A stretch of DNA of 64,000 nucleotides. Origin: an uncultured Planctomycetota bacterium. GTDB lineage: Bacteria > Planctomycetota > Planctomycetia > Gemmatales > Gemmataceae. Positions 3,634 to 41,555 of the stretch are shown here, piece after piece. A program made the translations under genes and the position numbers. Position 1 is the first letter of the stretch. Each line of letters begins with the position of its first letter. The stretch lies in contig CAWKHF010000002.1 in NCBI GenBank assembly GCA_963849325.1, forward strand, positions 512,001 to 576,000, given 5' to 3'. A model generated the notes under the pieces. That model saw only the letters and a list, made by a program, of their open reading frames with translations, was not told the DNA's origin and ran no database searches.

Positions 3634-3706
3634 TGCGTTTTGCCCCCTAGCTCATAGAATAATCGTTTGTCCTTGTGGTCCTGGTCCCCGCGCAGGCGCT
3701 TGCTTC

Positions 3707-17075: not shown

Positions 17076-17079
17076 AAGT

Positions 17080-20693: not shown

Positions 20694-20704
20694 CATATCC
20701 CACC

Positions 20705-20763
20705 ACTAGCCCGGAGCGCCAACGACGGGTTGAGACAAATCGTCGCTGGCGCTCCGGGCTTGT
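20705..20763. repeat. REP-like palindrome, family C (AGCCCGGAGCG...CGCTCCGGGCT)
   Basis: Stem-loop just after the RND stop codon; a more perfect copy lies at 53627-53685. Confidence 0.8.
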
Positions 20764-20792
20764 CGAGAAAATGTGTCGAAACCGCCAGTGGC

Positions 20793-20821
20793 TTGGCACT
20801 CCTCTCCGCGGCGCTTATACT
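20793..20821 (+). promoter_or_regulatory. Putative sigma70 promoter of the beta-propeller cluster
   Basis: TTGGCA-N17-TATACT about 95 bp upstream of the ATG at 20917. Confidence 0.55.
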
Positions 20822-20916
20822 GCGAACAGACGGCGTGTCCCGCCGTCGCCTGCCTCCCCGGGCTGCTCTTCCGTTTCATCGGAATGGGTAACACCTACCG
20901 CACGCCGAGGTCTTTC

Positions 20917-22194
20917 ATGAAGACAAAAACGCTGCTGGCAATCACTCTTGTCGCTGTCTGCCTTGCCCCGCTGTCGCTGTTCGCCCTCGATTGGCCACAG
21001 TGGCAAGGCCCCGACCGCACCAACGTCTCCAAGGAGACCGGCCTGCTCAAGGAATGGCCTCAAAGCGGGCCGAAACTGCTGTGGACTTCCGAGGACGCCG
21101 GTATGGGGTACTCGGCCCCGGCCATCGTCGGCGATCGGCTGTACTCGATGGGAGCGCGCGACGGCAAGGATTGGCTGTTCGCCTTGGATGGGAAGACGAG
21201 TCAAAAAAAATGGTCCACGCCGATTGGCGATCAATTCAGCAACAACCGAGGCAATGGTTCGCGTGGCACGCCCACGGTGGACGGCGATCGCATTTACGCC
21301 CTGGGGGGGCAGGGTAATCTCGTCTGCGTCAAGACCGATAGCGGCGAAATCGTCTGGCAGAAGAACCTCAAGCGTGATCTTGGCGGAAACATGCAGAACA
21401 ATTGGGGGTATTCCGAATCGCCCCTGATCGATGGCGCGGTCATCGTCTGCACGCCGGGCGGCAGCAAGGGGACCATCGCCGCCCTGGACAAGAACACCGG
21501 CGAGGTGCGCTGGCGGAGCAAGGGATTGATTGACGCCGCCGCCTACTCCTCGCTGGTGGTCTCGAACGCGGGCGGCGTGCGGCAGTACGTGCAGATGACC
21601 GGCAACAGCGTGACCGGCGTGGCCGCCAAGGATGGCCAGGTCCTCTGGAGTTTCAAACGCCCGAGCAACGTGGCGGCAATCCCTACGCCCATCTGCTTCG
21701 ATGATTCGGTGTACGTTTCCTCCGGCTACGGCACCGGCTGCGCCCTGCTGAAGATCAACAAGGATGGCTCCTCCTGGAAAGCGGAGCAGGTGTATGCCAA
21801 CAAGAACATGGTGAACCATCATGGCGGTGTCGTACACCTTGGCGACCATTTCTACGGTTACTCCGACGGCAAGGGCTGGGTGTGTCAGGATGCCAAGACC
21901 GGGGCGGTGGTGTGGCAAGAGCGGAATCGCCTGGGCAAGGGATCGTTGACCTGTGCGGAGGGTCGGCTGTATTGCTACAGCGAAAAAGACGGCACCGTGG
22001 TGCTTGTCGAGGCATCGCCGGCCGGCTGGAAGGAATCGGGCCGTTTCACGATCCCGCAACAAAGCAAACTGCCCCGTCCGAGCAGTCAACCCCGGAACAA
22101 CATCTGGACGCATCCGGTGGTGGCCAACGGCCGATTGTACCTGCGCGATCAGGATTTGATATTCTGTTACGACGTCAAGGGCGGCGAACGCTAA
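20917..22194 (+). CDS. Exported PQQ-like/BamB-like beta-propeller protein 1
   Basis: Signal peptide MKTKTLLAITLVAVCLAPLSLFA, DWPQWQGPDR, repeated 'SP..xGD.', 'TGEVRW', C-terminal WTHPVVANGRLYLRDQ. Confidence 0.9.
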   Translation: MKTKTLLAITLVAVCLAPLSLFALDWPQWQGPDRTNVSKETGLLKEWPQSGPKLLWTSEDAGMGYSAPAIVGDRLYSMGARDGKDWLFALDGKTSQKKWSTPIGDQFSNNRGNGSRGTPTVDGDRIYALGGQGNLVCVKTDSGEIVWQKNLKRDLGGNMQNNWGYSESPLIDGAVIVCTPGGSKGTIAALDKNTGEVRWRSKGLIDAAAYSSLVVSNAGGVRQYVQMTGNSVTGVAAKDGQVLWSFKRPSNVAAIPTPICFDDSVYVSSGYGTGCALLKINKDGSSWKAEQVYANKNMVNHHGGVVHLGDHFYGYSDGKGWVCQDAKTGAVVWQERNRLGKGSLTCAEGRLYCYSEKDGTVVLVEASPAGWKESGRFTIPQQSKLPRPSSQPRNNIWTHPVVANGRLYLRDQDLIFCYDVKGGER

Positions 22195-22234
22195 CCCGCA
22201 AGCGGCAAACAGGACAATCATCCCCCGGTGAACC

Positions 22235-23530
22235 ATGCGAATCCTCCCGACCGTGTGCGCGGCGGCCCTGGTCTTTGTCCTGTCGGCGGCGGATTGGCCG
22301 CAGTGGCAAGGCCCCAACCGCGACGCCGTCTCGAAAGAGACCGGCCTGCTTGCGAAATGGCCCAAGGACGGACCCGAGTTGGCGTGGACGTTCGACAAGG
22401 CCGGCTCCGGCTACGCCGGTCCCGCCGTCGTCGGCGGCAAGCTGTACACGATGGGCGGCCGCGAAGGCAGCGAATACGTCTTCGCCCTGGATAACAAGGG
22501 CCAGGAACTGTGGAGCGCCAAGATCGGCTCGGTGTACGACTTCGAGGGCAACAACTGGAGCCGCGGCCCCAACGCCACGCCGACGGTAGATGGAGAGCGG
22601 CTCTTCGCACTGGGCAGCCAGGGCGTGCTGGTGTGCCTGGACACCGGCGGCAAGGAGCAATGGCGCAAGGATCTGCCGAAGGAACTCGGCGCCCAGGTCA
22701 GCACCGTCGGCGGCGGGCCGAAGGGCATGGGCTGGGGCTTCTCGTGGTCGCCGCTTGTCGATGGCGATCAACTCATCTGCGTGCCCGGCGGACCCCAGGG
22801 GTTGTTGGCGGCGCTGGACAAGAAGACCGGCGACGTGAAGTGGCGCAGCAAGGCCGTCACGGACCCGTGTCCGTACTCGTCGCCGATTGCGGCGACCCTC
22901 GGCGGCGTCAAGCAGTACGTCCAGGTGGTCAACGCCGGGGTCGTCGGCGTCGAGGCGAAGACCGGCGAGGTACTGTGGAACTTCAAACGCAAGAGACCGT
23001 GGAGCGACGTGCTGTGTCCGACGCCGATCTGCCGGGGTGATTGGATCTACGCGACAGGCACCAAGACGAGCGGCTGCACTCTCATCAAGGTCCACGCCGA
23101 CGGTGGGAAATTCAAGGCGGAGGAAGTGTATTCCAACAAGCTGATCTCGAACTTTCACGGTGGTGTCGTGCTGGTCGGCGATTACGTCTATGGTTATCAC
23201 GCCAACCGCGAATGGGCGTGCCAGAGTTTCGCCGAGGGCGGGGCCAACAAGTGGGAGTCGGACCCCAACGCCCTGGGGGCCGGCGGCTCGGGCGGCTCGA
23301 TCCTCGTCGCCGACGGCCGGCTGTACTGTCTGGCCGATAGCGAGGGCGCCGGCGTCGTCGGCATGATCGAAGCTCGGCCGGACAAATACAGCGAAATATG
23401 CCGCTTCACACTGCCGCGAAAGTCTACCCTGCGCAAAGAGAGCGGCGGCGTGTGGACGCACCCGGTCCTCTCGGATGGATACCTTTACCTGCGCGATCAG
23501 GAATTGATCTTCTGCTACAAGGTGAAATGA
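22235..23530 (+). CDS. Exported PQQ-like beta-propeller protein 2 (paralog of protein 1)
   Basis: ADWPQWQGPNR...KETGLL; WTHPVLSDGYLYLRDQELIFCY. Confidence 0.9.
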   Translation: MRILPTVCAAALVFVLSAADWPQWQGPNRDAVSKETGLLAKWPKDGPELAWTFDKAGSGYAGPAVVGGKLYTMGGREGSEYVFALDNKGQELWSAKIGSVYDFEGNNWSRGPNATPTVDGERLFALGSQGVLVCLDTGGKEQWRKDLPKELGAQVSTVGGGPKGMGWGFSWSPLVDGDQLICVPGGPQGLLAALDKKTGDVKWRSKAVTDPCPYSSPIAATLGGVKQYVQVVNAGVVGVEAKTGEVLWNFKRKRPWSDVLCPTPICRGDWIYATGTKTSGCTLIKVHADGGKFKAEEVYSNKLISNFHGGVVLVGDYVYGYHANREWACQSFAEGGANKWESDPNALGAGGSGGSILVADGRLYCLADSEGAGVVGMIEARPDKYSEICRFTLPRKSTLRKESGGVWTHPVLSDGYLYLRDQELIFCYKVK

Positions 23531-23545
23531 GGAAATGCGCCCTTG

Positions 23546-23609
23546 GTTAGCCGCGACGCGCAGCGGAGCGCGCGACAGACCCGCGCTCCGCTGCGCGTCG
23601 CGGCTAAAC
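23546..23609. repeat. REP-like palindrome, family D (TTAGCCGCGACGCGCAGCGGAGCGCG...)
   Basis: About 26-bp perfect stem; other copies at 51437-51499 and 60018-60081. Confidence 0.9.
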
Positions 23610-23631
23610 GGGAGGTAGAACGGGAGAGGCC

Positions 23632-24955
23632 ATGTTCGCCGCGCCGCGGGATGACATCGCACGGGCGGAGTTGGCCCACTGGCAAATCCAACGCCTGTCT
23701 CTTCTCCTGCGTGACATTCTCCCCGGCAATCGCTTCTACGCTCGCAAGTTTCAGCAAGCCGGGATCGATGTCGCCTCCCTATCCCTACCCGCCGACCTGC
23801 CACGCCTCCCCTTCACGACCAAGTCGGAACTGCTCGATGACCAGGCCCAACATCCTCCCTACGGCGAGATTTTAACGTATCCGGTCGAGCACTACAGCCG
23901 ATTGCACCAAACGTCCGGCACGGCGGGACGGCCGCTGCGCTGGCTGGATACGCCGGAGAGTTGGTCGCGGCTGCTCGACTGCTGGATGACGATGCTCGGC
24001 ATGGCCGGCGTGACGGCGGCGGATCGGCTGTTCTTTCCCTTCTCCTTCGGGCCGTTCCTCGGCTTCTGGACGGCGTTCGAGGCGGCGTCGCGGTTGGGCT
24101 GTCTGTGTCTGCCCGGCGGCGGCCTGAGCAGTTCGGCCCGTCTGCGCTTCCTGCTCGACAACCAGGCGACCGTCATCCTGTGTACGCCCACTTATGCCCT
24201 GCACCTGGCGGAGATCGCGCAGACCGACGGTATCGATTTGGTCGGCTCAACGGTGCGCAAAGTGATCGTCGCCGGCGAGCCGGGCGGCAGCATCCCGGCG
24301 ACGCGCGGCCGCATCGAGAGCGCCTGGGGAGCGCGGCTGTTCGATCACACCGGCATGACGGAAACCGGCCCGCTGGGGATTGAATGTTCCGAGCAGCCGG
24401 GCGGTCTACATCTGTTGGAGACCGAATGCCTGGCGGAAGTGATCGACCCCGAGACCACGCAGTCGGTGCCGGCCGGGACCGAGGGCGAACTGGTGCTGAC
24501 CACATTCGATCGACCAGGCAGTCCGCTGGTGCGCTACCGCACCGGCGACCTGGTGCGCGTCGATCCGCGGCCGTGTCCGTGTGGCCGGGCGCTGGTGCGC
24601 CTCGACGGCGGCATCCGCGGCCGCGTCGATGACATGATTGTCCTTCGCGGCAACAACTTGCATCCCAGCGCCTTGCAGACCATTCTGCATCGTCTCGCCG
24701 AGGTCGCCGAGTATCGCATGGAAGTCGATTACAAAGCCGCGCTGCCGGTCCTGCGCATCGAGGTCGAGCCGCGACCCGGCGTCGCCGGCGACGCCCTGGC
24801 TCGAGCGCGTCGAACACGCCATCCGCACGGAACTGCTTTTCCGCGCCGAGGTGCGGGCCGTTCCGCCCGGAAGTCTGCCCCGCTACGAAATGAAGGCCCG
24901 CCGACTGGTACGAAAAAACGAACCAGGTACTGCAAGCGATCCCTCGAAATCGTAA
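23632..24955 (+). CDS. Phenylacetate-CoA ligase (PaaK)-family adenylate-forming enzyme; frameshift near 24800
   Basis: LPFTTKSEL, QTSGTAGRP, TPTYALHL, GEPGG, HTGMTETG, YRTGD, GRVDDM; C-terminal 'SLPRYEMKARR' in the next frame. Confidence 0.88.
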
Positions 24956-24962
24956 AAAAGCA

Positions 24963-25040
24963 ATCAGCGGTCAGCGATCAGCAGTCAGCAAAACACAACC
25001 GGACGGATCGCTGATCGCTGATCGCTGACCGCTGATCGCT
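24963..25040. repeat. Inverted heptamer-array element (TCAGCRR)n...(GCTGATC)n
   Basis: tcagcggtcagcgatcagcagtcagc ... gctgatcgctgatcgctgaccgctgatcgct. Confidence 0.8.
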
Positions 25041-25059
25041 TACCAAGAGAGCCGATCCC

Positions 25060-27378
25060 ATGAAGCACTGCCTCCCCCTGCTGCTGGTCCTGTTCGGCTG
25101 GACGGCGACGATCCGCGCCGACAACTGGTCGTCCTGGCGCGGCCCGGAACAGACCGGCGTTTCCCGCGACACCGGCCTGCCCGACACCTTCGCCGTCGAG
25201 AAGGACAAGGAAAAGAACATCGTCTGGCGGACGCCGTATGGCGGGATCACCACGCCGGTCATTCAGAACGGCCGGGTTTACGTCATCAACAAGGTCGGCG
25301 AGGACGAGTCGCAGCAAGAGCGCGTCATGTGCTTCGACGCCAACGACGGCAAGGTGCTATGGCAGCACAAGTTCAACGTCTTCCTGACCGACATCGTCGC
25401 CGACCGGCTCGGCTGGACGCAGATGGTCGGCGACGCCGAGACGGGCAACGTCTATGCTCACGGTACGCAGGGCTTTCTCTTCTGCTTCGACAAGGACGGC
25501 AAGATCCGCTGGAAGCATTCGCTGACCGAGGAATACGGTCGCATCAGCGGCTACGGCGGACGCATCACCAGTCCGATCCTGTTCGAGGATCTGCTCATCA
25601 TGCCGCTGGTCAACGCCAACTGGGGCGAACAGACGGTCGGCGGCACGCGGTTGGTTGCCTTCAACAAGCGCAGCGGCGAGGTCGTGTGGTGGTCGTCCAC
25701 GAATTATCGCGTTAAAGACACCTTCGCCTGCATGCCGGTCGTCGCCAAGATCGGCGGACAATGGCTGGTCATCACGGGTGCCGGCGACGGCGGGGTCCAC
25801 GCCTTCAAGGCCCGCACCGGCGAGAAGGTGTGGAGCTATATTTTCGCCGCCGGGGCGATCAACGCCTCGCCGGTCGTGGACGGCGATTTGGTGTACGCCG
25901 GCCACGGCGAGGCCAACATCGACGGCCGACGAACAGGGTCGCGTCATCTGCCTGGACGCCGGCAAGGTCGAGGACGGCAAGCCGAAGCTGGTCTGGAAGG
26001 TGGACGGCATCCGCGTCAAATACGCCTCGCCGCTCTTGCATGATGGCCGGCTGTACGTCTGCAACGTCGTCGGCGAGATGTATTGCCTGGATGCCAAGAA
26101 CGGCAAGCAGCTGTGGAAGTATCAGTATGGCCAAAACACGCGCGGCTCGCCGGTCTGGGGCGACGGCAAGATTTACCTGCCCGAATTGGATTCGCAGTTC
26201 CACATCCTCAAGCCCGACGACGAAAGAGTGCAAGTCGCTCTGTTCGGAGTTTTTCCGCGGCGCCGGCGAGGCGCCGGTGGAGCTGACTGGCAGTCCGGCC
26301 ATCGCCAATGGCCGCCTCTACTTCCTGACCAGCGAGGAACTGCTGTGCATCGGTAAGAAGGACCACAAGGCGGCCGACGCCGGCAAGACGCCGGAGCAGC
26401 AGACGGATCGTCAGGCACCGGCCGACGCCAAGCCGGCGCATCTGCAGGTGGTGCCGGCCGACGTGGCCCTGACGCCGGGCCAGAGCGTCAATTTCAAGGC
26501 GCTGGCCTACGACGACCACGGCCGACTGATCGGCGAGGTCAAGGCGGATTGGTCGCTGGCCGGGCCGCTGCCTCCCGTGTTTCCCATCGGCATGCCGACG
26601 CCGCCGCAGCCCAAGTCGCCGCCGTCTCCGCCGCCGCCCATGAACGGCAAGCTCAGTCACGACAGCGGTACGACCACCAAGCTGACCGTCGGCAACGCCG
26701 CCGCCGGCGCAGTTTGGCCGCGTCGTCGCCAAGGCGAACGGCCTGACCGCTTCCGTCCGCGTGCGCGTGGCGCCGCTGTTACCCTACGCCATCGACTTCG
26801 CCAAGGTGCCGCTCGGCCGCACGCCCGGCGGCTGGGTCAACTGTCAGGGCAAGTTCGCCGTCGCCAAGATGAAGGACGGCACCGTCGCCCTCAAGAAACG
26901 CAACGACGCGCCCAGTCCTCTCGTGGCGCGGGCCCGCACCTACATCGGCATGCCCGACCTGACCGACTACACCATCGAGGCCGACATGCAGGGCACCAAA
27001 CGACAAGCCGACATGCCCGACATGGGCATCGCGGCCAACCGCTATCGCCTCGCTCTGATCGGCAACGCCCAGCAATTACGGCTGGTTTCCTGGGACGCGC
27101 TGCCGCGTATCGACAAATCCATCGCCTTCGCGTGGAAGCCCGACGTCTGGTATAGCATGAAACTGACCGTCGAGGTCCAGGGCGACAAGGCCATCGCGCG
27201 CGGCAAAGTGTGGCCGCGCGATCAGCCGGAGCCGAAGGCGTGGACGCTCACGGTCGAGGATACCACCCCCAACCGCGAAGGCGCTCCCGCCCTGTACGGC
27301 AACTCCACCGGCATCCAGGAGAAGACGCCCGGCACGGAAATCTACTACACCAACGTCAAGGTCACGCCGAACAAATAA
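25060..27378 (+). CDS. Exported PQQ-like beta-propeller protein 3 with C-terminal Ig-like and concanavalin/lectin-like domains (3 frameshifts)
   Basis: Signal peptide, NWSSWRGPEQTG, propeller repeats across ORFs 25060, 25655 and 25761; ORF 26761 'YTIEADM...WYSMKLTVEV...RGKVWPR'. Confidence 0.8.
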
Positions 27379-27380
27379 AC

Positions 27381-27436
27381 AGTTCTGAGTTCTGAGTGAA
27401 AGACATAGAACTCAGAACTCAGAACTCAGAACTCAG
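27381..27436. repeat. Inverted heptamer-array element (AGTTCTG)n...(AACTCAG)n
   Basis: Same family as 16981; ends just before the ATG at 27439. Confidence 0.85.
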
Positions 27437-27438
27437 GA

Positions 27439-29113
27439 ATGTCATCCATGCAATCCCTCCCGAATCTGCGCCGTGTGGTATCGCTGGCCGGGACCGCGCT
27501 GGTGTTCGTCGTGGTCCTCGTCGTGGTCGGACTGCAATCGTCGTCGCCGGACGCCTCCTCGGCCAAGGCCGACGCCGGCAAGGACGACCGCCGCGATTGG
27601 CCGATGTACGGCGGCACCCTGTCGCGCGATCTCGTCAACCTCCACGACAAGGGCATGCCGACCAACTGGGACGTCACCGAGGGGCAGGAGAAGAACATCA
27701 AGTGGAGCGTGCCCCTGGGCGACAAAGCCTACGGCGGACCCATCGTCGCCGGCGGCAAGATTTACGTCGGCACCAACAACAAAAACCCGCGCGATCCGAA
27801 AATCAAGGGCGACAAGGGCATCCTGCTGTGCTTCCGCGAGTCGGACGGCGAGTTCTTCTGGCAGGCGGTCCACGACAAGCTGGCGGCCGGCCGCGTCAAC
27901 GACTGGCCCGGCGAGGGCATCTGTTCCAGCCCTATCGTCGAGGGCAATCGACTGTACTACGTCAGCAACCGCTGTGAGGTCATTTGCGCCGACGTGGACG
28001 GCATGGCCAACGGCAACCAGGGCGAGCAGGACGAGAACTACAAGGGCGACAAGGACGCCGACATCATCTGGCGGCTGGACATGATCGGCAAGCTGGGCGT
28101 TTTTCCGCACAACCTGGCCGTCTGTTCGCCGTTGATCGTCGGCGACACGCTATTCGTCATCACCGCCAACGGCGTGGACGAGGGACACATCAACATTCCC
28201 AACCCTGCCGCGCCGAGCTTTTTGGCCATCGACAAGAAGACCGGCAAAGTGCTGTGGAAGGACAACGCGCCGACGCGCAGCCTGGTCGAGGCCCAGAAAG
28301 CCGGTGCGGCCGTCAACATCCGCAAGATGGTCAACGCCGGTCAACTGTTGATGCACGGCCAATGGTCCAACCCCGTCTACGCCGAGGCGAACGGCAAACC
28401 GATGATCATCTTTCCCGGCGGCGACGGCTGGATTCGCGCCTACAACCCCAAGGACAGCTCGCTTTTGTGGAAGTTCGATTGCAATCCCAAGGGCACCAAG
28501 TACGTCCTCGGTCCGGCGGCCACGCGCAATGACTTCGTTGGTACGCCGGTCGTCTGGGAGAACAAGCTGTACATTGCCGTCGGCCAGGATCCCGAGCACA
28601 AGAAAAGTGTCGGTCATCTGTGGTGCATCGACATCACCAAGCAGCCGAAAAACGAGGACAAGGATCTCACGCCGGTCAAGAACAACTTCGATCCCAAGGC
28701 GGCGGTCAACAAGGATTCCGGCCTGGTCTGGCATTACGGCGGCAAGGCGCCGCCGGGTGTCCGCCGCAATTACTCGTTCGGACGTTCGATGAGCACTTGC
28801 GCCGTCCACGACGGCCTGTGCTACGCCGCCGACTTCGATGGCTATTTCTACTGTCTCGATGCCAACACTGGCGAGAAATACTGGGACGAATCCTGGGCGC
28901 CGACACCTGGAGTTCGCCGTATTGGGTGGACGGCAAGATTTACATCGGCAGCGAGAACGGCACGATGCACGTCTTCCAGCACGGCAAGAACAAGAAGGCG
29001 CAAGTAAGATCGACATGCAGGCCGACGCCATCCGCGCGACGCCCGTGGCGGCCAACGGCGTGCTGTACACGATCACCGAGAACCCGTGCAAGCTGTGGGC
29101 GATCAAGAAGTAG
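27439..29113 (+). CDS. Exported PQQ-like beta-propeller protein 4 (frameshifts near the 3' end)
   Basis: N-terminal TM/signal, DWPMYGGT..R, NIKWSVPLG...YGGP, HGQWSNP, FPGGDGW, WKFDCNPK. Confidence 0.88.
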
Positions 29114-29141
29114 CCGGGCATTACGAGGGAGGGCGGACGGG

Positions 29142-30702: not shown

Positions 30703-30777
30703 CGATTTACCCCAAGTCGTTTCGCGGCGGCTCGCCGATCCGACGCGAAACACCGATCGACAACCGAGGAACTTTCC

Positions 30778-31879
30778 GTGTCCGCTACCGCCAACGCCGA
30801 CCAGGTCCGCCAGGCCCGCGAAAAGCTCGATGCCCATGTCTGCGACATCGTCGCCTGGCATTTCAGCCCCGACACCGGCACGCCGTTCTGGCTCGAACGC
30901 GCCAAGTCCTTTCAGTTCAACCCGCTCAAGGACGTGCAGGGTTTCGACGACTTGAAGCTGTTCGGGCTTTTCGAGGACGAATGGCTTCGCGGCGGCCCGG
31001 TGCGGCGCTGGGTGCCCAAGGCGCTGCACAACAAGCCGACTTACGTTTTCGAGACCGGCGGCACTACCGGCATCCCCAAGAGCCGCGTCGTCCAGGACGA
31101 CTTCCGCATCGACTACGAGATGTTCAGCGACACTCTGCCGGAGAAGTATTTCCCCAGAGGGTCAAACTGGCTCATGCTCGGTCCGTCCGGCCCGCGGCGT
31201 CTGCGTCTGGCGGTCGAGCACCTCTGCCAATACCGCGGCGGCATCTGCTTCTGCGTCGATCTCGATCCGCGCTGGGTCGTCAAGCTCATCAAGAAGGGCT
31301 GGATGGAGCACCTGAAGGCGTACCAGGAGCACGTCATCGACCAGGCGCTGACGGTGCTGTCGGCCAACCACGAAATCAAGTGCATGTTCACGACGCCGAA
31401 GCTGCTCGACGCCCTGGCGACGCGGCTGGAGAAGGACGGTTCGAGCATCGCGCAAGCAGGGCATCATCGGCATCTTCTGCGGCGGCACCGAGATGACCTC
31501 GCAGTGGATTCGCTTCGCCATCGAGGAATTGCTCGGTCCCAGCGTGTACATCGCTCCTACCTACGGCAACACGCTGATGGGCCTGGCCGCGGCGGAGATG
31601 CCGACGGCGGAACAGAACTACAAGATCGCCTACTACGCTCCGCAGCCGCGCGCCGTCGTGCAGGTGGTGGACTTCAAGGATTACGACAAGGTCGTGGACT
31701 ATGGCCAGACAGGCCGGGTGATGCTGACGACGTTGACGAAGGAATTTTTCGTGCCGCGCTTCGCCGAGCGCGACGAGGGCGAGCGCGAGCCGCCCAGCGC
31801 GAAGTATCCGTGGGACGGCGTCAGCGGCGTGCGGCCGTTCCACGAATTCGCCGCGAGCACGACGGTCGGAGTGTATTGA
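30778..31879 (+). CDS. Short atypical ANL adenylating enzyme, EhpF/LuxE (acyl-protein synthetase)-like; frameshift near 31455
   Basis: 'WHFSPDTGTPFWLERAK' N-terminus, P-loop ETGGTTGIPK, PTYGNTLMG, 'GRVMLTTLTKEFFVP..ERD'; about 367 aa, lacking the small C-terminal ANL domain. Confidence 0.75.
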
Positions 31880-31897
31880 CCGACGAGGAGACAAGCG

Positions 31898-32686
31898 ATG
31901 CCATCACCGTTTCCAGGGATGGACCCGTATCTGGAAGATCCCTGGATCTGGCCGGACTTCCATCTGACCTTTGCGGTTGGGCTTCGTACGGAGTTGAACC
32001 GTCGGCTGCCAACCGGCTACGTTGCTCTCGTTGATCGCTACGTTTGGGCCTGGGAGCCGGAGACGGAAGAACGTAAGCGTTTGGGCAAGCTCGACGTGTT
32101 CTTTACAGGAGAGGGTGAATCGAGAGCGCCTGCCGCCGCAGCCGTCGCTGCTCCGGTGGAGATCGTCTTGCCCTCGGTGACCGAGAAAGGCACGCCGTAT
32201 GTGAAGATCGTGGACCGGGCCTATCGCCGATTGGTCACGGTCATCGAACTGTTAAGTCCGGCCAACAAAACTCCGGGCAAGGACCGAGACGCCTACTTGA
32301 TGAAGCAACGGGAGTATCTGGCCACGGACGTGAACGTGGTGGAAATGGACTTGCTGCGCAAGGGGGAGCGCTGGTCCTGGATGGCCCCTTCCGTGGTGGC
32401 ATCCGCTTATTATGTGATGGTGAGTCGGGCCGCAGAGCGTCCTCGAGGCCACGCCTGGCCATTCTCCGTGCGGGATTCTCTACCCACGATCGCCGTCCCT
32501 CTCACCGTGCGGGATGGCGACGTCGCCCTGGAACTCCGCCTGTGGATGAACCAGGTTTACGATAGTGCCGGCTATGACCGCGAATTGGACTACACGCAAC
32601 CTCCGAATCCTCCGCTCGACGAGTCGGACGCCGTCTGGGCGCGCGAGTTGTTAGATAATCGAACATCCCAAGGGAACCAATCATGA
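31898..32686 (+). CDS. DUF4058 family protein (PD-(D/E)xK nuclease-like, expanded in planctomycetes)
   Basis: MPSPFPGMDPYLE..W.DFH, VTVIELLSPANK, VEMDLLR, LDYTQPPNPPL. Confidence 0.9.
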   Translation: MPSPFPGMDPYLEDPWIWPDFHLTFAVGLRTELNRRLPTGYVALVDRYVWAWEPETEERKRLGKLDVFFTGEGESRAPAAAAVAAPVEIVLPSVTEKGTPYVKIVDRAYRRLVTVIELLSPANKTPGKDRDAYLMKQREYLATDVNVVEMDLLRKGERWSWMAPSVVASAYYVMVSRAAERPRGHAWPFSVRDSLPTIAVPLTVRDGDVALELRLWMNQVYDSAGYDRELDYTQPPNPPLDESDAVWARELLDNRTSQGNQS

Positions 32687-34112
32687 TTCACATCCCCGTC
32701 CTGCGCTGGGGCGAGCCGTACAAGAGCCTGGACGTGGACAAGGTGGTCCACTTCGCCACCGGCGAGCCGTTGGCCGAGGTCGGCCGGGCCAACGCCGGCC
32801 TCGTCGAGCGCGACATGCGCCACGCCCAACGCGCCCGCGACGTGCTGCGCGACATCCCCATCGCCGATCTGCTGCAGATGGTCAAGAAGGCGGCCGATCT
32901 GTACACGCAGGCGGAGCTGCCGCTGGGCGACGGCACGCAGACGCCGGAGCAGTTCGTGCGCATGCAGTCGGCGACGACCGGCCTGCCCGAACACATGTGC
33001 CGTTTCAACATGACGAAGAACCACTTCGTGTTGAACCAGATGGACAAGATCCTCGAAGCGCTGACGCGCGGCCTCGACCTCAACGTGTTGTCGCGCGGCT
33101 ACGGCGTCGAGCGCGGCGTGCCGATCAGCTATCAGGCGCAGTCGCCAGTGCTGGGGCTGGTGCTGCCGAGCAACTCGCCCGGCGTTCATACCCTGTGGCT
33201 GCCGATCATCCCCATGCAGATGGGTTTGGTGCTCAAGCCGGGACCGCAGGAGCCGTGGACGCCGTACCGCATGACGCAGGCGTTCGTGCAAGCGGGCGTG
33301 CCGAAGCAGGCCATCGCCATCTATCCCGGACTCGGCGACGTGGGAGCGGCGGTGCTGGCGCACTGCCCGCGCAGCCTGATCTTCGGCGGCACCGCCACCG
33401 TCGAGCAGTACAAGGGCAATCCGCGCGTCCAGGCCCACGGGCCGGGCTTCAGCAAGATCCTGCTCGGCGACGACGTGGTCGATAACTGGCGGAAGTATCT
33501 CGACCTCATGGTCGATAGCGTGCTGATCAACAGCGGTCGCGGCTGCATCAACTGCTCGGGCATCTGGGCGTCGCGGCATACCAAGGAGATCGCCGAGGCG
33601 CTGGCCGAACGCATGGGACCGATCCAGCCTTTGCCGCCGGAAGACCCCAAATCGGCCCTGGCCGCCTTCACCGTACCCGGACAGGCCGACGCCGTCTCCG
33701 CCGACATCGACCGCGATCTCAAGGACGCCGGCGCCCACGACATGACGGCGAAGTACGGGCCGCGGCTGGTCAAGAAGGAACGTTACGATTACCTGCGGCC
33801 GACCGTCATCCTCTGCGATTCGCCGGCCACGCCGATCGCCAAGAAGGAATACATGTTCCCCTTTGTAACGGTCGTGCAGTGTCCGCAGGAGAAGATGCTC
33901 GAAGCGATCGGGCCGACGCTGGTTTGCACGGCCATCACGCGAGGACAAGAAGTTCCAGCGTGCTCTGCTCGACGCCACGCACATCGATCGGCTGAACCTG
34001 GGTCCGACTTCCGACGATCAAGCTGAACTGGTTGCAGCCGCACGAGGGTAACATCGTCGATTTCCTGTTCCGGGCACGGGCATTCCAGTTTGAAGGAGCC
34101 TTGCCCTCGTAA
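32683..34112 (+). CDS. Aldehyde dehydrogenase-superfamily protein, atypical (LuxC/EhpG-like acyl reductase candidate); frameshifts near the 3' end
   Basis: VLPSNSPG, LKPGPQEP, NSGRGC (catalytic Cys), EYMFPF; 'AHGPGFSK' in place of ELGGK; C-terminal 'WLQPHEGNIVDFLFRARAFQ'. Confidence 0.82.
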
Positions 34113-34122
34113 GGCCCTTGTC

Positions 34123-34131
34123 TGGTATAAT
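34123..34131 (+). promoter_or_regulatory. Extended -10 element (TGnTATAAT), possible internal promoter for the Fe-ADH gene
   Basis: tggtataat in the intergenic gap of an otherwise GC-rich sequence. Confidence 0.45.
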
Positions 34132-34217
34132 GCAGGTACCCTCCACGGCTCCGGGCGTCTCCGGCTCGGGGCCGTCTTCCTATTTCGGCCCCACCCCGGA
34201 GACGCTGGGACCACCGC

Positions 34218-35423
34218 ATGACGGCATCCACGTTACCAACCCCTGCGCGCGCGTCCCGGCAAATCGCCGCTGCCGCACCCGCTGTTCGATTACCACCCGC
34301 TGACGCGCGTGGTGTACGGACCCGGGACGCTGCAACGCCTGGGCGAGTTGGTCCGCGAGCTGGGCGGCGCACCGGCCGCTGCTCGTCACCGATCCGGGGT
34401 TGTGGGCGGCCGGCCATCCGCAGCGGGCTCTGGCATCGCTGCGCGAGGCGGACCTGGAACCGATCCTGTTCGACGGCGTCGAGGAGAACCCGACCAGCCG
34501 GCACGTCGAGGCCGGCGTGGACGTGGCCCGGCGCGAGCGCATCGATTTCCTCATCGCCGTCGGCGGCGGCAGCTCGATGGACACGGCCAAGGGCATCAAC
34601 TTCCTGCTGACCAACGGCGGGCAGATGTCCGATTACAAGGGCTTCGGCAAGGCGAACACGGCCGATGCTGCCGTCCATCGGCGTGCCGACGACAGCGGGC
34701 ACCGGCAGCGAGGCGCAGTCGTTCGCGCTGATCGCCGACGAGAAGACGCACCTGAAGATGGCGTGCGGCGACCGCAAGGCCGCCTTCCGCGTCACCATCC
34801 TCGACCCGGAAGTGACCGTCTCGCAGCCGCGCACCGTCACCGCCGTCACCGGCATCGACGCCCTGTCGCACGCCCTGGAGTCCTACGTCTCGACGCGCCG
34901 CAACCCACTGTCGCAGGCGTTCGCGCGCGAGGCATGGCGGGCGCTGGAGCAGAACTTCGACACGGTCCTGCGCCGACCCGACGACCTGGAGGCGCGCGGC
35001 GCCATGCAGCTGGGGGCGCACTTCGCCGGCGCCGCCATCGAGAACTCGATGCTCGGCGCCTGCCACGCCTGCGCCAATCCGCTGACGGCTCATTACGGTC
35101 TGACGCACGGCATCGCCATCGGCATCCTGCTGCCTCACGTTCTCCGCTTCAACAGTTCGGCCGTCGGCACCCTGTACGGCGACCTGGCCCACGATGTCGG
35201 TCTGGTCAACGGCGACACGCTGGCGGCCGGCGAAGTGCTGGCGCGGCGCGTCGAGCACTTCATGCAGACGGCGGAACTGCCCACGCGGCTGTCGGAATGC
35301 GGCGTCAGCAGTGGCATTTTGCCGGTGCTGGCCGAGGAAGCCGCCCAGCAGTGGACCGGACGCTACAACCCGCGCCCCGTCAGCGAAACGGAGCTGCTGC
35401 AACTCTACGAGACGGCGTACTAA
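34218..35423 (+). CDS. Iron-containing alcohol dehydrogenase (frameshifts)
   Basis: RVVYGPG, VEENPT, GGGSSMDTAK, VPTTAGTGSE, GIDALSHALESY, HACAN...HGIA metal ligands. Confidence 0.9.
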
Positions 35424-35426
35424 AAT

Positions 35427-35558
35427 AGAACTAACCACAGAGTCACAGAGAACACAGAGAAAAAAAGAGAATAAAGCATGAACCGGCTTCCTTGCACCTG
35501 GGTTCGATTTTCTCTGTTTTGTCTTCTCTGTGCTCTCTGTGACTCTGTGGTTAGTTCT
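35427..35558. repeat. Inverted element (AACCACAGAGTCACAGAG...CTCTGTGACTCTGTGGTT) whose right arm lies in a signal-peptide coding region
   Basis: 35-bp arms at 35427-35461 and 35524-35558 with one mismatch. Confidence 0.88.
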
Positions 35559-36609
35559 TCTTCTTCGGCCGCGGATGATTGGCCCGTCTTCCGCGGCAAC
35601 GCCGAACAGACCGGCGTATCCCCCGTCGCGCTGCCGGACAAGCTCGACGTGCTGTGGAAGTTCGCCACCAAGGACAGCATCGAAGGCGCCCCCGCCATCG
35701 CCGACGGCGTCGTCTACGTCGGCTCCTTCGACGAGTATCTCTATGCCCTCGACCTGATGACCGGCAAGGAGAAATGGAAGTACAAGGCGCGGCCCCATCA
35801 AGGCGTCGCCGGCCGTGCGCGGCGGGGCCGTCTACGTCGGCAACTCCGATGGCATCTTTCACTGCGTCGATGCCGCCAAGGGCGAGAAACGCTGGACCTT
35901 CGAGAGCGGCGGCGAGATCACGTCCGGGGCCAACTTCGCGGGTGAATTCGTGCTGTTCGGCTCCTACGACGAGACGATGTATTGCCTGACGAAGGACGGC
36001 AAGAAGAAATGGGAGTTCAAGACGCAGGGGCCGGTCAACGGCTCGCCGGCGGTGGCGGCGGACCGGACCTTCGTGGCCGGCTGCGACAGTGCCCTGCACG
36101 TCCTCGACATCGCCACGGGCAAGGAAATTCAGTCCGTCGATCTCGGCGGCCAATCCGGGGCGACCGGCGCCGTCCTCGGCGATCATCTCTACGTCGGCAC
36201 CATGACCAACCAGTTCGAGGCCATCGACTGGAAGAAGGGCGTCATCGCCTGGACCTTCCAGGCCGGCGAGCGTGCCCAGCCGTTCTACGCCTCAGCGGCG
36301 GTGACCGAGGAGTTCATCGTCGTCGGCAGCCGCGACAAGCGCATCCACGCATTGGAGCGCAAGACGGGCAAGGAGGCGTGGAGCTTCGCCACGGAGGGGC
36401 GCGTGGACGCCTCGCCGGTGATCGTCGGCAAGCGCGTCTTCGCTCCGTCGCTGGACGGCAACCTGTACGTCCTCGACCTGGCCAACGGCAAGCAACTCGA
36501 CAAGATCGAGTTGGACGGCCCGGTCGCCGGCTCGCCGGCGGTCGCGGCGGGACGGCTGATCCTCGGCACCAGCAAGGGCACCGTCTACTGCTTCGGCGCG
36601 AAGAAGTGA
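35478..36609 (+). CDS. Exported PQQ-like/BamB-like beta-propeller protein 6 (frameshift near 35790)
   Basis: DWPVFRGNAEQTG, regular blades 'SPAV..G.VYVGS.D..LYALD..TGKEKW'. Confidence 0.9.
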
Positions 36610-36739
36610 TTCACCTGCGGCCGGACACTCGTTTTTCCACGGGGATTTGCTAGAAACAGGCGTAGCAACGACCGAGCCGCTGGCGGCTTAGCACGTTGCG
36701 CGAAGCCGCCAGCCGCGCCGTTCCCCTTCGAGGTGTTCC

Positions 36740-39695
36740 GTGCCGCGCTCCCCCGTGTTGATGCTGCTCATTTTCGCTTTCACGCTGTTCACTAGCGCCA
36801 CGCTGCTGTTCCTGGTCGAGCCGATGGTCGGCAAGATGATCCTGCCGCTCCTGGGTGGAACGCCGGCGGTGTGGAACACCTGCATGGTCTTCTTCCAGGC
36901 TGTACTGCTGCTGGGTTATCTCTACGCCCATCTCAGTACGTCGTGGCTGGGCGCCCGCAAGCAAGCGGTGCTGCACGTGTTCCTGCTCCTGCTGCCGTTC
37001 CTGTTCTTGCCGGTGGCCGTCAACCGGGAGCTCATCAAGGGAGACGAAGATCCGGTCGTGCTCGTGCTGCTCTTGCTGTCACTGTCGGTCGGCCTACCGA
37101 TGTTCGTGGTCAGCGCCAGCGCGCCGTTGTTGCAGAAATGGTTCGCCAGCACGTCGCATCCGGCGGCGAAAGATCCGTACTTTCTCTACGGCGCCAGCAA
37201 CCTCGGCAGCATGTTGGCGCTGGTGGCGTATCCGACCGTGGTCGAGCCGTTCCTGCGGCTGAGGCAGCAGAGCATGGACTGGTCGATCGGATACGGCCTC
37301 CTCGTGACGCTGACGGCGGTCTGTGCCGTGTTCCTCTGGCTGTCGCCGCGGAACGTCGAGACCGGCGACAAGACGGCGGGCGCGGCGTCCGGGAGCGTAC
37401 CCGCGTCGAAGGAGTATTCCTCCGAGTCCATCCAGCCGAGCAAACAGGGCATCCGCGCCGGCAAACGGCCGAAGTCGAGCACACCGGCCGATGTCTCGAT
37501 CAGCCACACACTCACGGGGGCCGTGACGTGGCTGCGCATGCTGCGCTGGGTGGCGCTGGCGTTCGTGCCATCGAGCCTGATGCTGGGGGCCACCACCTAC
37601 ATCACCACGGACATCGCCGCCATCCCGCTGTTGTGGGTGGCGCCGTTGGCACTCTATCTGCTCAGCTTCATCCTCGTCTTTTCTCACATTCCCTCCTGGT
37701 TACAGAGACTAATGGTGATTGCCGGCTGCGCGGCAATCAGTCTATCGCTCGGGATCCTCTTCTGGCACCTGGGTACACAGGCTAACAGCGGCCTCGTTCA
37801 ATTGGCATGCCGACTATTGGCGATTCTGATATGCGGAGGCGGCGCCTATGGGTGCTGGCGAATTTGGACAATCCACTCCAACAACCTTCTTCACCAAGTC
37901 TTGATTCTCCTTCTACCGCTGTTAGTGCTGGGGCTGCTGTTCATTATGCTGTCGGAACTGAAGATCAAAATCGCCTGGAGCCTGGGTCTGCATCTGACGA
38001 CGATGTTCGTCGTCTCGATGGTCTGCCACGGCGAACTGGCCCGCGACCGGCCGGCCCCGAAATACCTGACCGGCTATTTCCTGTGGATGTCGGTGGGCGG
38101 TGTTCTGGGTGGATTGTTCAACGGCCTGGTGGCGCCGCTGATCTTCAATGGCATCGCCGAGTACGAGCTGGCGATGATGCTGGCGTGCTTCCTGACGCCG
38201 CCGTTGGGGACCACCGGAGAGAGTTCCTGGGGTCGGCGTGCCGACCTGGGGCTGGCCGGCCTGTTCGCCGGCATCGGTGTCCTCCTAGCCTTGTTGCGGC
38301 TGCGCGATCGCAACTTGCCCTGGGACGTGCTGGCGAGCGGTCCCTGGCCGTGGGAGCTGGCCGCCCTGGTCCTGGGCGTGGTCCTCGGTGTTGTCGTCGC
38401 CGTCCGTGCCCGCGACAAAAAGTTCGACCACTGGATGGACCTGCTACTGCCGGTGTGTCTGGGACTGCTGCTGATTGGTCTGTCGTGGGGATTGTGGGCG
38501 TCCGCCGTAACGCTGCGCGTGCGCAAGATCGCCGAGGTGGTGCATGTGGAGAGCACCTATTTCCGCCGCCTCCTCACCTACCTCGTGCCGGTCGTCCTCT
38601 GTTACACGTTCGTCGAGCGCTCGCTGCGTTTCACCCTCGGCGTAGGCGCGGTCCTGTTGGCGAGCGGCTTTTGCGGCATCCTCGATGATAGCGTGCTGCA
38701 CCAGGAACGCAGCTTCTTCGGCGTCCTCAAGATCGAGCACGAGGCCGAGGAATTCCACGAGGAACTGTTCGTCTTCCGCCGCCTCGTCCACGGCACGACG
38801 CTGCACGGCGTCCAGCTCCTCAACGAGGACCGACACGATGAGCCGCTGACGTACTACCATCGCACCGGCCCCATCGGCCAGCTCATGCTGGCGTACAACC
38901 CCGATACGCGGCGCAACCTGGCGGTCATCGGCCTGGGCACCGGCACCATGGCCTGCTACGCTCGTCCCGGCCAGCACTTGACCTTCTACGACATCGATCC
39001 GGTCGTGCGCCGGCTCTCCTTCGACGAAGGCGACCCGTATTTCAGCTTCGTCAACGATGCCCGCCAGCGCGGCGTCAACCTGGACCTGGTCATGGGCGAT
39101 GCCCGCCTGACCATGGAGCGCAAGCAACTTCAGGAATCCGAGAAGTATGGAATTATGATCGTCGATGCCTTCAGCTCCGACGCCATCCCGATCCACCTCA
39201 TCACGCGCGAAGCGATGCAGGTCTATCTCGACAAGCTGACCGACGATGGACTGCTGGCGTTCCACGTCTCGAACCGTTATCTCGACCTGCGGCCGGTGCT
39301 GCTGAACCTGGCGCGGAGCGCGGCCTGTCCGCCGTGTATCAAAGCGACGACCGCGAGAAGGATCCTCGCTCCACCGCTTTCCTCGGCAAGACCAGCTCGA
39401 CGTGGGTGGTGCTGGCCCGCAAGAGCGAGTACCTGGATGGACTGCGCGAGATGAACGACTGGGAGGACCAGCGCAAGGACCTGCGCCGGAGCTGCTGCCG
39501 CTGGCGGTGTGGCCGGACAACGGCACCGGCCTGGCGGCGCAAGCGACGTTGCTGCGCAATCTCCTTGATGAGGAGATATGCAAGCGGCCGGCGAAGTGGA
39601 AAGAACTGGAGCCGGACGAGAGTTGGCCGGACATCGGCAAGGTCGGCGTGTGGACGGACGATTACTCGAACCTGCTGAGCGTCTTCTGGTGGTAA
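36740..39695 (+). CDS. Fused multi-TM membrane domain / spermidine-synthase-like SAM-dependent transferase (frameshifts near the 3' end)
   Basis: 'LLFLVEPMVGK..LPLLGGTPAVWNT', 'DPYFLYGASNLGS', HGTTLHG, VIGLGTG, YDIDP, GDAR, VDAFSSDAIP.HL, WTDDYSNL. Confidence 0.88.
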
Positions 39696-39708
39696 TGTTG
39701 CGCTGCCG

Positions 39709-41439: not shown

Positions 41440-41555
41440 GAGAGGTCACTGCCCACGGCGCCAACAAGGGGAATCCCCTGATAAGCATATCGCGGACAAG
41501 ACAGGCTTCCTACTACAATGAGAAGGACTTCGTGCGCTTGCCAGGAGATGCCCTC

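Follow-up and report, generated by a model that had tools for sequence, protein, structure and literature searches.

Reduction of a carboxylic acid to an aldehyde can be divided between two proteins, an adenylating enzyme and a reductase of the aldehyde dehydrogenase (ALDH) superfamily, as in the LuxE/LuxC pair. For EhpF, from the D-alanylgriseoluteic acid cluster of Pantoea agglomerans, Bera et al. (2010) reportedly proposed reduction via the adenylate. A published gene table lists ehpF (1062 nt, AMP-binding protein) beside ehpG (1371 nt, ALDH family protein) (PMC11278526), and griseoluteic acid is described as a 6-hydroxymethyl compound derived from phenazine-1,6-dicarboxylate (PDC) via EhpF-O, the hydroxymethyl group replacing a carboxyl of PDC (PMC3175449). 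In grixazone synthesis, GriC is stated to form the acyl-AMP of 3-amino-4-hydroxybenzoate (3,4-AHBA), which GriD reduces to the aldehyde (PMC10179220, citing Suzuki et al. 2007). Here we analyze a cluster of twelve genes from an uncultured planctomycete of the Gemmataceae, in which a putative enzyme pair of this kind is encoded among six exported beta-propeller proteins. "The window" denotes the whole 64,000-nt stretch of DNA that was analyzed (contig C2:512001-576000 of the source genome), and the genes are lettered A-L in their order along the + strand.

With a probability of roughly 55%, we read this locus as the Gemmataceae version of a conserved acid-reductase and exported-propeller system that spans several phyla. 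The source genome (8.16 Mb in 14 contigs, 65% G+C, marker completeness 84.7%) carries the twelve genes at 20917-39454 of the window, all on the + strand, with intergenic gaps of at most about 170 nt and a 4-nt overlap between H and I. The original prediction for this DNA had described twelve co-oriented, closely spaced genes, including six signal-peptide, BamB-like propellers of four types, and both descriptions were borne out. The four types are A/B, D, E/F and K, and all six propellers match PQQ_2 (PF13360).

Reductase and propeller genes across genomes

Gene G (30778..31879, + strand) encodes a putative adenylating enzyme similar to EhpF and GriC, a member of the acyl-CoA synthetase, NRPS adenylation domain and luciferase (ANL) superfamily. 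A 382-aa ortholog (from locus L015) matches the EhpF structures 3hgu/3l2k with an E value of 1.1e-45, residues 24-370 aligning with 12-356 of 369, and its next-best match in the PDB is a 28-residue stretch of 4-chlorobenzoyl-CoA ligase. Because the orthologs are only 362-398 aa long, G is without the C-terminal ANL subdomain, like EhpF. The Pfam AMP-binding profile is covered only at positions 248-373, and a Pfam scan gave no AMP-binding_C match in G, while C shows AMP-binding_C_2 in the same scan. Residues T109, G110, G111, T112, T113, G114, P116 and K117 are invariant in an alignment of 14 sequences; the motif that they form, T-G-G-T-T-G-x-P-K, we take to be the A1 phosphate-binding loop of ANL enzymes.

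Plasmid homologs of G (31-36% identity) are annotated as AMP-binding protein, phenazine biosynthesis protein or arylcarboxylate reductase. On a Pantoea plasmid the homolog lies within a phz/ehp cluster, directly before an ALDH-family gene, and on a Halalkalicoccus plasmid it lies between a sodium:solute symporter gene and an ALDH gene. On plasmid p1 of Streptomyces angustmyceticus (L031, 425529-426611), a homolog named arylcarboxylate reductase is found amid mqnC, mqnE and 1,4-dihydroxy-6-naphthoate synthase, with the ALDH partner absent; nothing in the planctomycete loci points to menaquinone. The source genome itself has a second, distant EhpF-like gene at C12:1264285-1265356 (29-37% identical to G), beside which the query used gave no EhpG-like match.

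Gene I (32683..34112, + strand) encodes a predicted ALDH-fold reductase similar to EhpG and GriD. It aligns end to end with the ALDH at the EhpG position of Pantoea (25% identity over 440 aa, E 3e-28) and with the Halalkalicoccus plasmid ALDH (27% over 453 aa, E 2e-35), and the three proteins have in common a C-terminal P-H-[ED]-G...F-L...R motif; ordinary ALDHs in the PDB align with I only over its middle (residues ~157-410). Compared with one of these, 4o6r, I keeps the Cys (NSGRxCIN versus NQGQACIA) and the Asn, and has His in place of the catalytic Glu of ELGGK. Neither Cys294 nor His258 varies among 20 orthologs, which come from three phyla. The Pantoea protein has Gln at the ELGG Glu position, so the Glu is absent there too. 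Assignment of I to ProA (gamma-glutamyl phosphate reductase) was rejected, as no ProA model was among its NCBIfam matches. Where 1.6 kb or more of downstream sequence is available, I adjoins G in 60 of 65 loci; in the window, the DUF4058 gene H intervenes.

Judged by this homology, G and I are best read as a two-protein carboxylate reductase of the EhpF/EhpG (GriC/GriD) type. The original prediction had an ANL enzyme and an atypical ALDH reduce an acid to an aldehyde, followed by an iron-containing alcohol dehydrogenase (Fe-ADH), and the EhpF/EhpG homology supports this scheme. Its comparison with a LuxE/LuxC-type pair did not hold, since neither LuxE (PF04443) nor LuxC (PF05893) gave a Pfam match at E<=0.01-0.1. 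The Fe-ADH is encoded by J (34215..35423, + strand; start approximate). An intact ortholog passes Pfam in both its N- and C-terminal domains (PF00465, 165.8 bits; PF25137, 134 bits), and its closest named model, ErcA, scores 289.7 bits, below the cut-off of 550. Gene C (23632..24955, + strand) encodes a predicted PaaK-like (F390-synthetase-like) acyl/aryl-CoA ligase, which scores 221 and 192 bits with the PaaK equivalog models, below both cut-offs (700 and 646), and appears to resemble PaaK at the subfamily level only.

An ortholog of I is present in 41 of 41 relatives (the source genome and 40 others), in two of them only in fragmentary or weak form. Within the window's own order and class, the gene order C-D-E(/F)-G-I-J(-K) recurs; among 16 loci of 10-20 kb, C is present in 12, D in 10, G in 15, I in 16 and J in 14, with H in two and L in one. 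A scan by alignment with G, taking one genome per species, returned at least 599 stretches, of which 595 were confirmed. Further analysis covered the best 80 of these at least 595 loci, which include Gemmataceae, Pirellulales, Planctomycetales, Opitutaceae (74-75% identity) and Vicinamibacterales/Thermoanaerobaculia (70-74%).

Linkage to propellers was counted in the 35 loci that extend 6 kb or more in both directions from G, and a propeller was scored when it lay within 8 kb. Such a propeller was found in 8/9 Gemmatales-like loci (three or more propellers in six of them), in 8/14 loci of other Planctomycetota (one each), in 2/2 of Opitutaceae and in 2/10 of Acidobacteriota. Therefore, physical linkage is lineage-dependent, strong in the window's own order and patchy elsewhere. 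In an Opitutus locus (L053), genes for an ATP-binding cassette (ABC) ATPase, a PaaK-like ligase, a 173-aa protein, a 4HBT thioesterase, a family 4 glycosyltransferase (GT4), a HemN-like radical S-adenosylmethionine (rSAM) protein, K and J are followed by G and I, and then by E, D, an A/B-type propeller and a TonB-dependent receptor. An acidobacterial locus (L080) has the order FtsX, ABC, GT4, sodium:solute symporter family (SSF) transporter, TonB-dependent siderophore-type receptor, K, G, I, E, D. The original prediction would have been refuted by propeller genes unlinked to the enzyme genes in other genomes; D, E and K stand beside G-I in three phyla, in differing orders, and the proposed association withstood this comparison. 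Moreover, five genomes without a D/E-type propeller near G-I (three Vicinamibacterales, one Thermoanaerobaculia and Schlesneria sp. T3-172) were tested, and elsewhere each was found to carry one D-E pair as well as an ortholog of J.

Between L015 and Opitutus, G is 74% and I 70% identical, and C, D, E, J and K are only 30-46% identical, so a recent transfer of the whole cluster appears unlikely; the same values suggest that G-I is under unusually strong constraint. In a midpoint-rooted FastTree phylogeny of G (78 sequences from the best 80 loci), which is biased to the best matches and has low support (0.43 for Gemmatales), the Gemmatales (19) and the Opitutaceae (3) each form one clade, 11 of 13 Acidobacteriota group together, and there is no sign of recent transfer.

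Presence and absence were then scored for eight gene families and pqqC over one even sample of 151 Planctomycetota genomes with a completeness of 85% or more. Orthologs of G (E<=1e-100, at least 52% identity) occur in 30 genomes, and eight more genomes have only paralogs of 33-40% identity. Precisely these 30 hold the C-terminal domain of D (E<=1e-25), J (E<=1e-70) and the HemN-like rSAM protein (E<=1e-70), and E (E<=1e-50) is found in the 30 and in four others. The tie between propellers and enzymes that had been predicted is thus upheld, the patterns of D, J, HemN-like and G being identical in the 151 genomes. At E<=1e-110, C is present in 20 of the 30 holders and in none outside; at E<=1e-60, it is present in 22 holders and 14 other genomes. 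K (E<=1e-45) occurs in 28 of the 30 and in 13 others, the GT4 (E<=1e-60) in all 30 and 14 others, and the giant FtsX permease (E<=1e-60) in all 30 and 16 others. To a large extent, K, GT4 and FtsX have their surplus genomes in common, and several of these (for example G046, G055, G134 and G186) carry K and GT4 side by side. One genome of 88% completeness (G124) has E, K, GT4 and FtsX, with G absent.

The genes keep company even when they are scattered. In families with partial holders (f13, 1/3; f14, 3/7), the same genomes carry all members. Of the complete genomes of family f4, 7/7 keep the members, although the distances between them reach megabases; G108, for example, has C at 0.77 Mb, K-J at 2.00 Mb, E-D at 2.04 Mb and G at 3.96 Mb. 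Taken together, co-occurrence shows that three exported propeller families (D, E/F and K) and a HemN/ChuW-like rSAM protein travel with the reductase enzymes, and that the GT4 and the ABC/giant-FtsX transporter accompany this set, though they are also present without it. Within the caveats of the sample, the picture is of a nested system: a base module (ABC/giant FtsX, GT4 and K) in about 44-46 genomes, and an add-on (G, I, J, HemN-like, D, E and often C) in 30 genomes, never without the base.

The window holds only part of this system. Elsewhere in the source genome, a 1006-aa fusion of a major facilitator superfamily (MFS) transporter with a GT4 adjoins a 4HBT thioesterase at C2:648.4-651.9 kb, the HemN-like gene, which is frameshifted, lies at C2:658.7-659.8 kb, and the ABC ATPase, the giant FtsX and a homolog of the Opitutus 173-aa protein lie at C6:832-837 kb. 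The HemN-like protein is nearest to the ChuW/HutW, STM4012 and HemN models, all below their cut-offs. The MFS-GT4 fusion is a single open reading frame (ORF) on the minus strand (C2:648922-651939; L112:6923-9940); in other phyla, the GT4 is separate and lies beside an ABC/FtsX or SSF transporter.

It could be argued that two unrelated modules meet here, the propellers being general BamB-like scaffolds of the envelope that are near the reductase in Gemmatales only through shared ancestry. The folds of the propellers are indeed generic, planctomycete genomes are rich in them (~30 genes here), and G-I stands without a propeller within 8 kb in 6/14 loci of other Planctomycetota and 8/10 of Acidobacteriota. 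We consider this explanation unlikely, because it leaves unexplained why D and J share the pattern of G in 151 genomes (30 common holders, none outside) and E the same 30 and four more, and why this pattern persists in the partial families and where the genes are far apart. It also fails to account for the orthologous propellers that reappear beside G-I, in another order, in Opitutaceae and an acidobacterium, and for the D-E pair carried elsewhere by 5/5 tested genomes that have no D/E-type propeller near G-I.

Several points nevertheless weigh against the reading of the locus as part of one conserved system. The profile thresholds were chosen after the score gaps had been seen, a single phylum was sampled, and genomes that are related do not count as independent observations. 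The case for C is weaker, since only 20 of the 30 holders have a top-tier ortholog of it, and K, GT4 and FtsX are present without the reductase in 13-16 genomes. A propeller is near G in only 8/14 loci of other Planctomycetota and 2/10 of Acidobacteriota, and the strong intergenic hairpins described below speak against a single transcript. The propellers yield no catalytic or ligand clue besides the lectin fold of D, and the aromatic nature of the acid rests solely on the known relatives and on the name "arylcarboxylate reductase" given by NCBI to the plasmid homologs.

Exported propellers and a possible pathway

At its N-terminus, each of the six propellers has either a signal peptide or a long hydrophobic anchor, and a W-P-x-[WF]-[RG]-G motif comes next; all six are encoded on the + strand. 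A (20917..22194) is a lineage-specific extra of the A/B type, read in a single frame, with a signal peptide beginning MKTKTLL... and a PQQ_2 score of 134.7 bits; B (22235..23530), of the same type, is 48-49% identical to it. D (25060..27378) consists of a propeller, a linker and a C-terminal domain with a predicted concanavalin A (ConA)-like lectin or carbohydrate-binding module (CBM) fold (26686-27378). E (27439..29113) is an N-terminally anchored, 8-bladed BamB-like propeller, and F (29142..30702) is its paralog, a duplication seen within this family. K (35478..36609) is of the ACSF4 type (PF13570, 167 bits versus a cut-off of 133). Genome-wide, there are 27 propeller-like regions, three of which lie in this 19 kb and hold six of the ~30 propeller genes.

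Intact orthologs of D are single ORFs of 766-817 aa with the propeller, the linker and a 230-aa C-terminal domain. A model of this domain built from 12 sequences has a predicted local distance difference test score (pLDDT) of 91.4 and is a ConA-like, CBM66-like jelly roll. It is structurally closest to a PL14 alginate lyase, CBM66, legume lectins and other modules of this kind that bind sugars (E ~1e-6 to 1e-4, template modeling (TM) score ~0.5), and D probably binds a sugar-containing ligand, as the model suggests. E, the only one of the propellers that was folded, gave a model from 13 sequences (pLDDT 79) in which a helix at the N-terminus (residues 4-30) precedes a propeller of eight blades. 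In the PDB, this model is most similar to BamB chains (E ~1e-21, target TM 0.74-0.81), and the first pyrroloquinoline quinone (PQQ) alcohol dehydrogenase, PedH, appears at rank 47. In profile searches, the propellers score 20-130 bits with the BamB equivalog TIGR03300, below its cut-off of 285. They stay below the cut-offs of the quinoprotein models TIGR03075 (at most 58 bits versus 480) and TIGR03074, and match the "acido-empty-quinoprotein" model TIGR04528 only weakly (18-52 bits versus 650). The propellers thus appear to be BamB-like exported scaffolds or binders.

The original prediction had remarked that no pqq gene was present. This is correct for the window, but not for the genome, in which pqqC and pqqE occur on contig C6; both are true genes (C6:739109-741190) above their NCBIfam cut-offs. 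PQQ was nonetheless rejected as a general explanation, as pqqC is found in only 2/151 sampled Planctomycetota genomes and 5/41 relatives, against 30/151 and 41/41 for the holders of the system, and E is closest to BamB. The scarcity of pqqC shows that the system does not depend on making PQQ, although holders may still take it up. The same two observations, a model of E nearest to BamB instead of the PQQ dehydrogenases and 2 genomes with pqqC against 30 holders, lend no support to the earlier proposal that the propellers use the product as a cofactor.

The enzymes suggest the following pathway. G would form the acyl-AMP of an acid, probably aromatic in view of the known relatives, the PaaK-like ligase and the 4HBT thioesterase. 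The Cys of I would take the acyl group as a thioester, from which NAD(P)H would release the aldehyde, and J would reduce the aldehyde to the alcohol. C would handle the same or a related acid as its CoA thioester. In the weakest step of the scheme, the product would be methylated, glycosylated and passed to the envelope, where the propellers, jointly with the FtsX machine, may bind it or process it; the sugar part of such a product might, tentatively, be a ligand of the lectin-fold domain in D.

The same enzymes could also run in reverse, in a catabolic route by which an alcohol that is imported or oxidized in the periplasm becomes an acid via the Fe-ADH and the ALDH and is activated for degradation by the ANL or PaaK-like ligases. 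In favor of such a route are the reversibility of Fe-ADHs, the PaaK-like character of C, the TonB-dependent receptors and SSF symporter of the Opitutus and acidobacterial loci, and an enoyl-CoA hydratase gene downstream in L015. However, I has His replacing the Glu that ALDHs use for hydrolysis, G is without the ANL subdomain used in thioester formation, and the characterized relatives GriC/GriD are described as reductive. Furthermore, the GT4, the FtsX transporter and the HemN-like rSAM protein are not degradative genes, the propeller E is nearest to BamB with PQQ dehydrogenases only at rank 47, and pqqC is rare among the holders. We therefore regard degradation as an improbable role for the locus and favor the reductive direction.

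On the reductive reading, a more far-reaching picture can be drawn, which we hold as a tentative and rather doubtful possibility. The locus might belong to an envelope system of bacteria of the Planctomycetes-Verrucomicrobia-Chlamydiae (PVC) group and Acidobacteriota, in which the reductase, the Fe-ADH and the ChuW-like rSAM protein would make a methylated aryl alcohol, the GT4 would glycosylate it and the type VII (FtsX) ABC transporter would hand it over to the fixed propeller trio, one member of which has a lectin domain and which would need it as a ligand, a cofactor or a covalent decoration. If this were true, the system would not be an antibiotic cluster but a periplasmic machine of a new kind, dependent on a small molecule.

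The bold form of the original prediction, that cytoplasmic enzymes make a new small cofactor which is loaded into six "empty quinoprotein-like" propellers, agrees with the strict co-occurrence of the enzymes and the D/E propellers, with the weak matches to TIGR04528 and with the exporters in the wider system. The propellers, however, score far under every quinoprotein model (at most 58 of 480 bits for TIGR03075), E models as BamB-like, K, GT4 and FtsX are present without the enzymes in 13-16 genomes, and A and B are not conserved partners. A cofactor shared by all six propellers is therefore quite improbable.

Reading frames, transcription and neighboring genes

Eight of the twelve genes are frameshifted in the assembly, only A, B, H and L being intact. 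Intact orthologs of relatives align to the window genes in two to four frames, with one frameshift in C (near 24801), three in D (~25926, ~26226 and ~26700), two in E (~28890 and ~29006-29036), two in F (~30011 and ~30150), one in G (near 31455), two in I (~33940 and ~34008), two in J (~34366 and ~34654) and one in K (near 35790). The total is 14, or 15 with a probable extra shift at ~29270 in the signal-peptide region of F. Near this extra shift, at 29225-29280 in the signal-peptide/linker region of F, there is a perfect 24-nt tandem repeat of 2.3 copies that encodes repeated SGADKAEP.

Of the 14 shifts, 12 are +1 steps, at which alignments of nucleotides to several relatives show single surplus bases in the window. 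A plot of third-position G+C shows the coding frame jumping within genes, with the correct frame staying high on either side of each shift, and the aligned pieces are 53-94% identical to intact orthologs and contain no in-frame stops in their aligned parts. Genes outside the cluster are affected as well: rpoB of the source genome (C1:334967-338611) is in four frame pieces and, within the window, the AcrB gene (17318-20917) is split into four or more pieces and a Ser/Thr kinase gene (39662-41445) into two. The orthologs are single ORFs in short-read, many-contig relatives, and two few-contig relatives are broken in the same manner (L014, genome G007; and G002). Because rpoB and AcrB are also broken and the orthologs are intact in many-contig relatives, the frameshifts are technical assembly errors and not gene decay. 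Their density is uneven, with none in the 6 kb of A, B, H and L and 14 in the other 11 kb; long unbroken ORFs were seen at 47-62 kb of the window. One protein of the original prediction, the 418-aa product of ORF 30778-32034, turned out to be a chimera, as the true G runs from 30778 to ~31455, changes frame and ends at 31879.

A decaying locus of pseudogenes with real frameshifts, to which one might attribute the 14-15 shifts within 11 kb beside unbroken A, B, H and L, is highly improbable in view of the likewise broken rpoB, AcrB and kinase genes, the prevalence of +1 steps with high third-position G+C around them, the stop-free and conserved pieces, the similarly broken G002, and a marker completeness of only 84.7% despite 14 contigs.

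Strong predicted hairpins separate several of the genes. Those at C/D (24958..25041; AGCGATC / GATCGCT; -55 kcal/mol, z -8.7), D/E (27381..27426; AGTTCTG / AGAACTC; -29.7 kcal/mol, z -5.1) and J/K (35430..35555; CACAGAGA / TCTCTGTG; -66.7 kcal/mol, z -9.65) are assembled from inverted tandem arrays of 7-9-nt units, heptamers at C/D and D/E; the long J/K hairpin encloses the start codon of K. At I/J (34145..34175), a G+C-rich stem followed by a T-rich run is weaker (-25.3 kcal/mol, z -1.9). All four were called on the + strand. Related hairpins of different sequence occur at the same borders of relatives: L013 has one at J/K (z -3.5) and L015 one at D/E (z -5.8). A comparable hairpin was not found at C/D in L015 or at two other junctions tried. 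With strong hairpins at C/D, D/E and J/K and a weaker one at I/J, one transcript for the twelve genes seems doubtful. As for the sigma70-like promoter of the original prediction, the hexamer pair TTGGCA-17-TATACT does exist at 20793-20821 (+ strand, 10/12 consensus matches), but it lies inside the 3' end of the AcrB gene, and the single site found in 19.6 kb, against 2.0 expected in shuffles, is no better than chance.

The original prediction treated all twelve genes as members of the system, which proved too wide, since the A/B propellers, H and L are not conserved beside the reductase pair; they are local or lineage-specific riders. H (31898..32686, + strand) encodes a DUF4058 protein (PF13267, 223.7 bits versus a cut-off of 25), a variable, multi-copy insert outside the conserved set. 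The source genome has seven DUF4058 copies, 31-41% identical, including copies on contigs C5, C9 and C12. A DUF4058 gene is inserted between G and I or after I in only part of the Gemmataceae loci (2/16 and 8/80), with two copies flanking I in one (L043), and it behaves like a mobile or selfish gene. L (36740..39454, + strand), an MFS/spermidine-synthase-like gene, encodes a 904-aa multi-pass membrane protein whose C-terminal part resembles spermidine synthase (NF037959, 41 bits versus a cut-off of 40); a single contig of the same genus (L013 = L032) is the only other place where it was seen next to the cluster.

Immediately upstream lies a resistance-nodulation-division (RND) efflux pair, HlyD-like and AcrB-like (16121-20920), the stop codon of the AcrB gene overlapping the ATG of A (20917, ATGA). 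Such a HlyD/AcrB pair beside the cluster was not found in the 16 and 80 other loci, except for a weak AcrB-like match on the opposite strand in one of them (L035), and the pump was rejected as a partner of the cluster, the arrangement being local to this locus. Two further groups of window genes are unrelated to the cluster: sortilin/BNR-repeat proteins at 384-1094 and 7735-10620, one of 962 aa with a PDZ domain, and a prenyltransferase-like alpha-toroid protein at 3551-4642. Soil metagenome contigs match only small shares of the locus (5-7% of words).

Relation to known systems

Literature searches, supplements aside, found no publication on this system. A preprint on planctomycete dibromo-anisic acid names a chorismate lyase and a brominase (10.1101/723874); as genes for neither were seen in the window, no link was drawn. 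We found no described system that matches the coupling to propellers, a ChuW-like rSAM protein and a type VII ABC/GT4 set, the near-invariance across phyla and the strict phyletic pattern. Across the phylum, G, I (judging by its position next to G and by the 41 relatives), J, the HemN-like rSAM protein and D have a common pattern of presence and absence, and E shares the same 30 genomes and has four more. A reductase identity of ~70% among Planctomycetota, Verrucomicrobiota and Acidobacteriota, against 30-46% for its neighbors, would be an unusual constraint for a tailoring enzyme and points to a conserved cellular function, as yet unnamed, in bacteria that abound in soil and fresh water. The system also offers a handle on the many orphan BamB-like propellers of planctomycetes, and Schlesneria sp. 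T3-172 (L098) is a sequenced strain that holds it. Standard rules for biosynthetic gene clusters would probably miss it.

Among the propellers of known function, BamB is the nearest counterpart, being likewise an 8-bladed exported propeller whose chains are the best PDB matches of the E model. Unlike BamB, D adds immunoglobulin-like and lectin-fold domains, E has an N-terminal helix instead of a lipobox, and the propeller genes co-occur with cytoplasmic enzymes and not with bamA. On the transport side, the system recalls MacB/FtsX-type (type VII) ABC transporters: in Vicinamibacterales, Opitutus and the acidobacterium, the reductase comes with a GT4, an ABC ATPase and a giant, duplicated FtsX permease (~1100-1200 aa), and all 30 holders have these genes. 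Here, however, these genes are outside the window (C6:832-837 kb and C2:648-652 kb), and they occur without the reductase too.

The logic of G and I, an adenylating enzyme with an ALDH-superfamily reductase, is that of LuxE/LuxC, but the Lux families give no Pfam match, luxD and luciferase genes are absent here, and EhpF/EhpG are the nearest relatives. GriC/GriD of Streptomyces griseus resemble the pair in combining an AMP-forming enzyme with a separate reductase that converts an aryl acid, 3,4-AHBA, to an aldehyde, as described in PMC10179220, and homologs of G on Streptomyces plasmids (31-35% identity) are named arylcarboxylate reductase by NCBI. The genomic context is wholly different, and the likeness to GriC/GriD is one of description, not of sequence comparison.

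The closest resemblance is to EhpF/EhpG, in which an ANL enzyme of ~370 aa without the C-terminal subdomain is likewise adjacent to an ALDH-family protein of ~470 aa. Identity is only 25-33%, however, and the phz/ehp core genes are absent here; the ehp cluster, for its part, has no exported propellers, HemN-like rSAM protein, GT4 or FtsX/ABC transporter, all of which are tied to the pair in the present system. Moreover, sequence identity of the pair across three phyla is 70-74%, a much closer conservation than tailoring enzymes typically show. Judged by these comparisons, the reductase pair appears to be a new member of the EhpF/EhpG-GriC/GriD kind, which would extend the little-studied two-protein carboxylate reductases, enzymes of biocatalytic interest, beyond antibiotic pathways.

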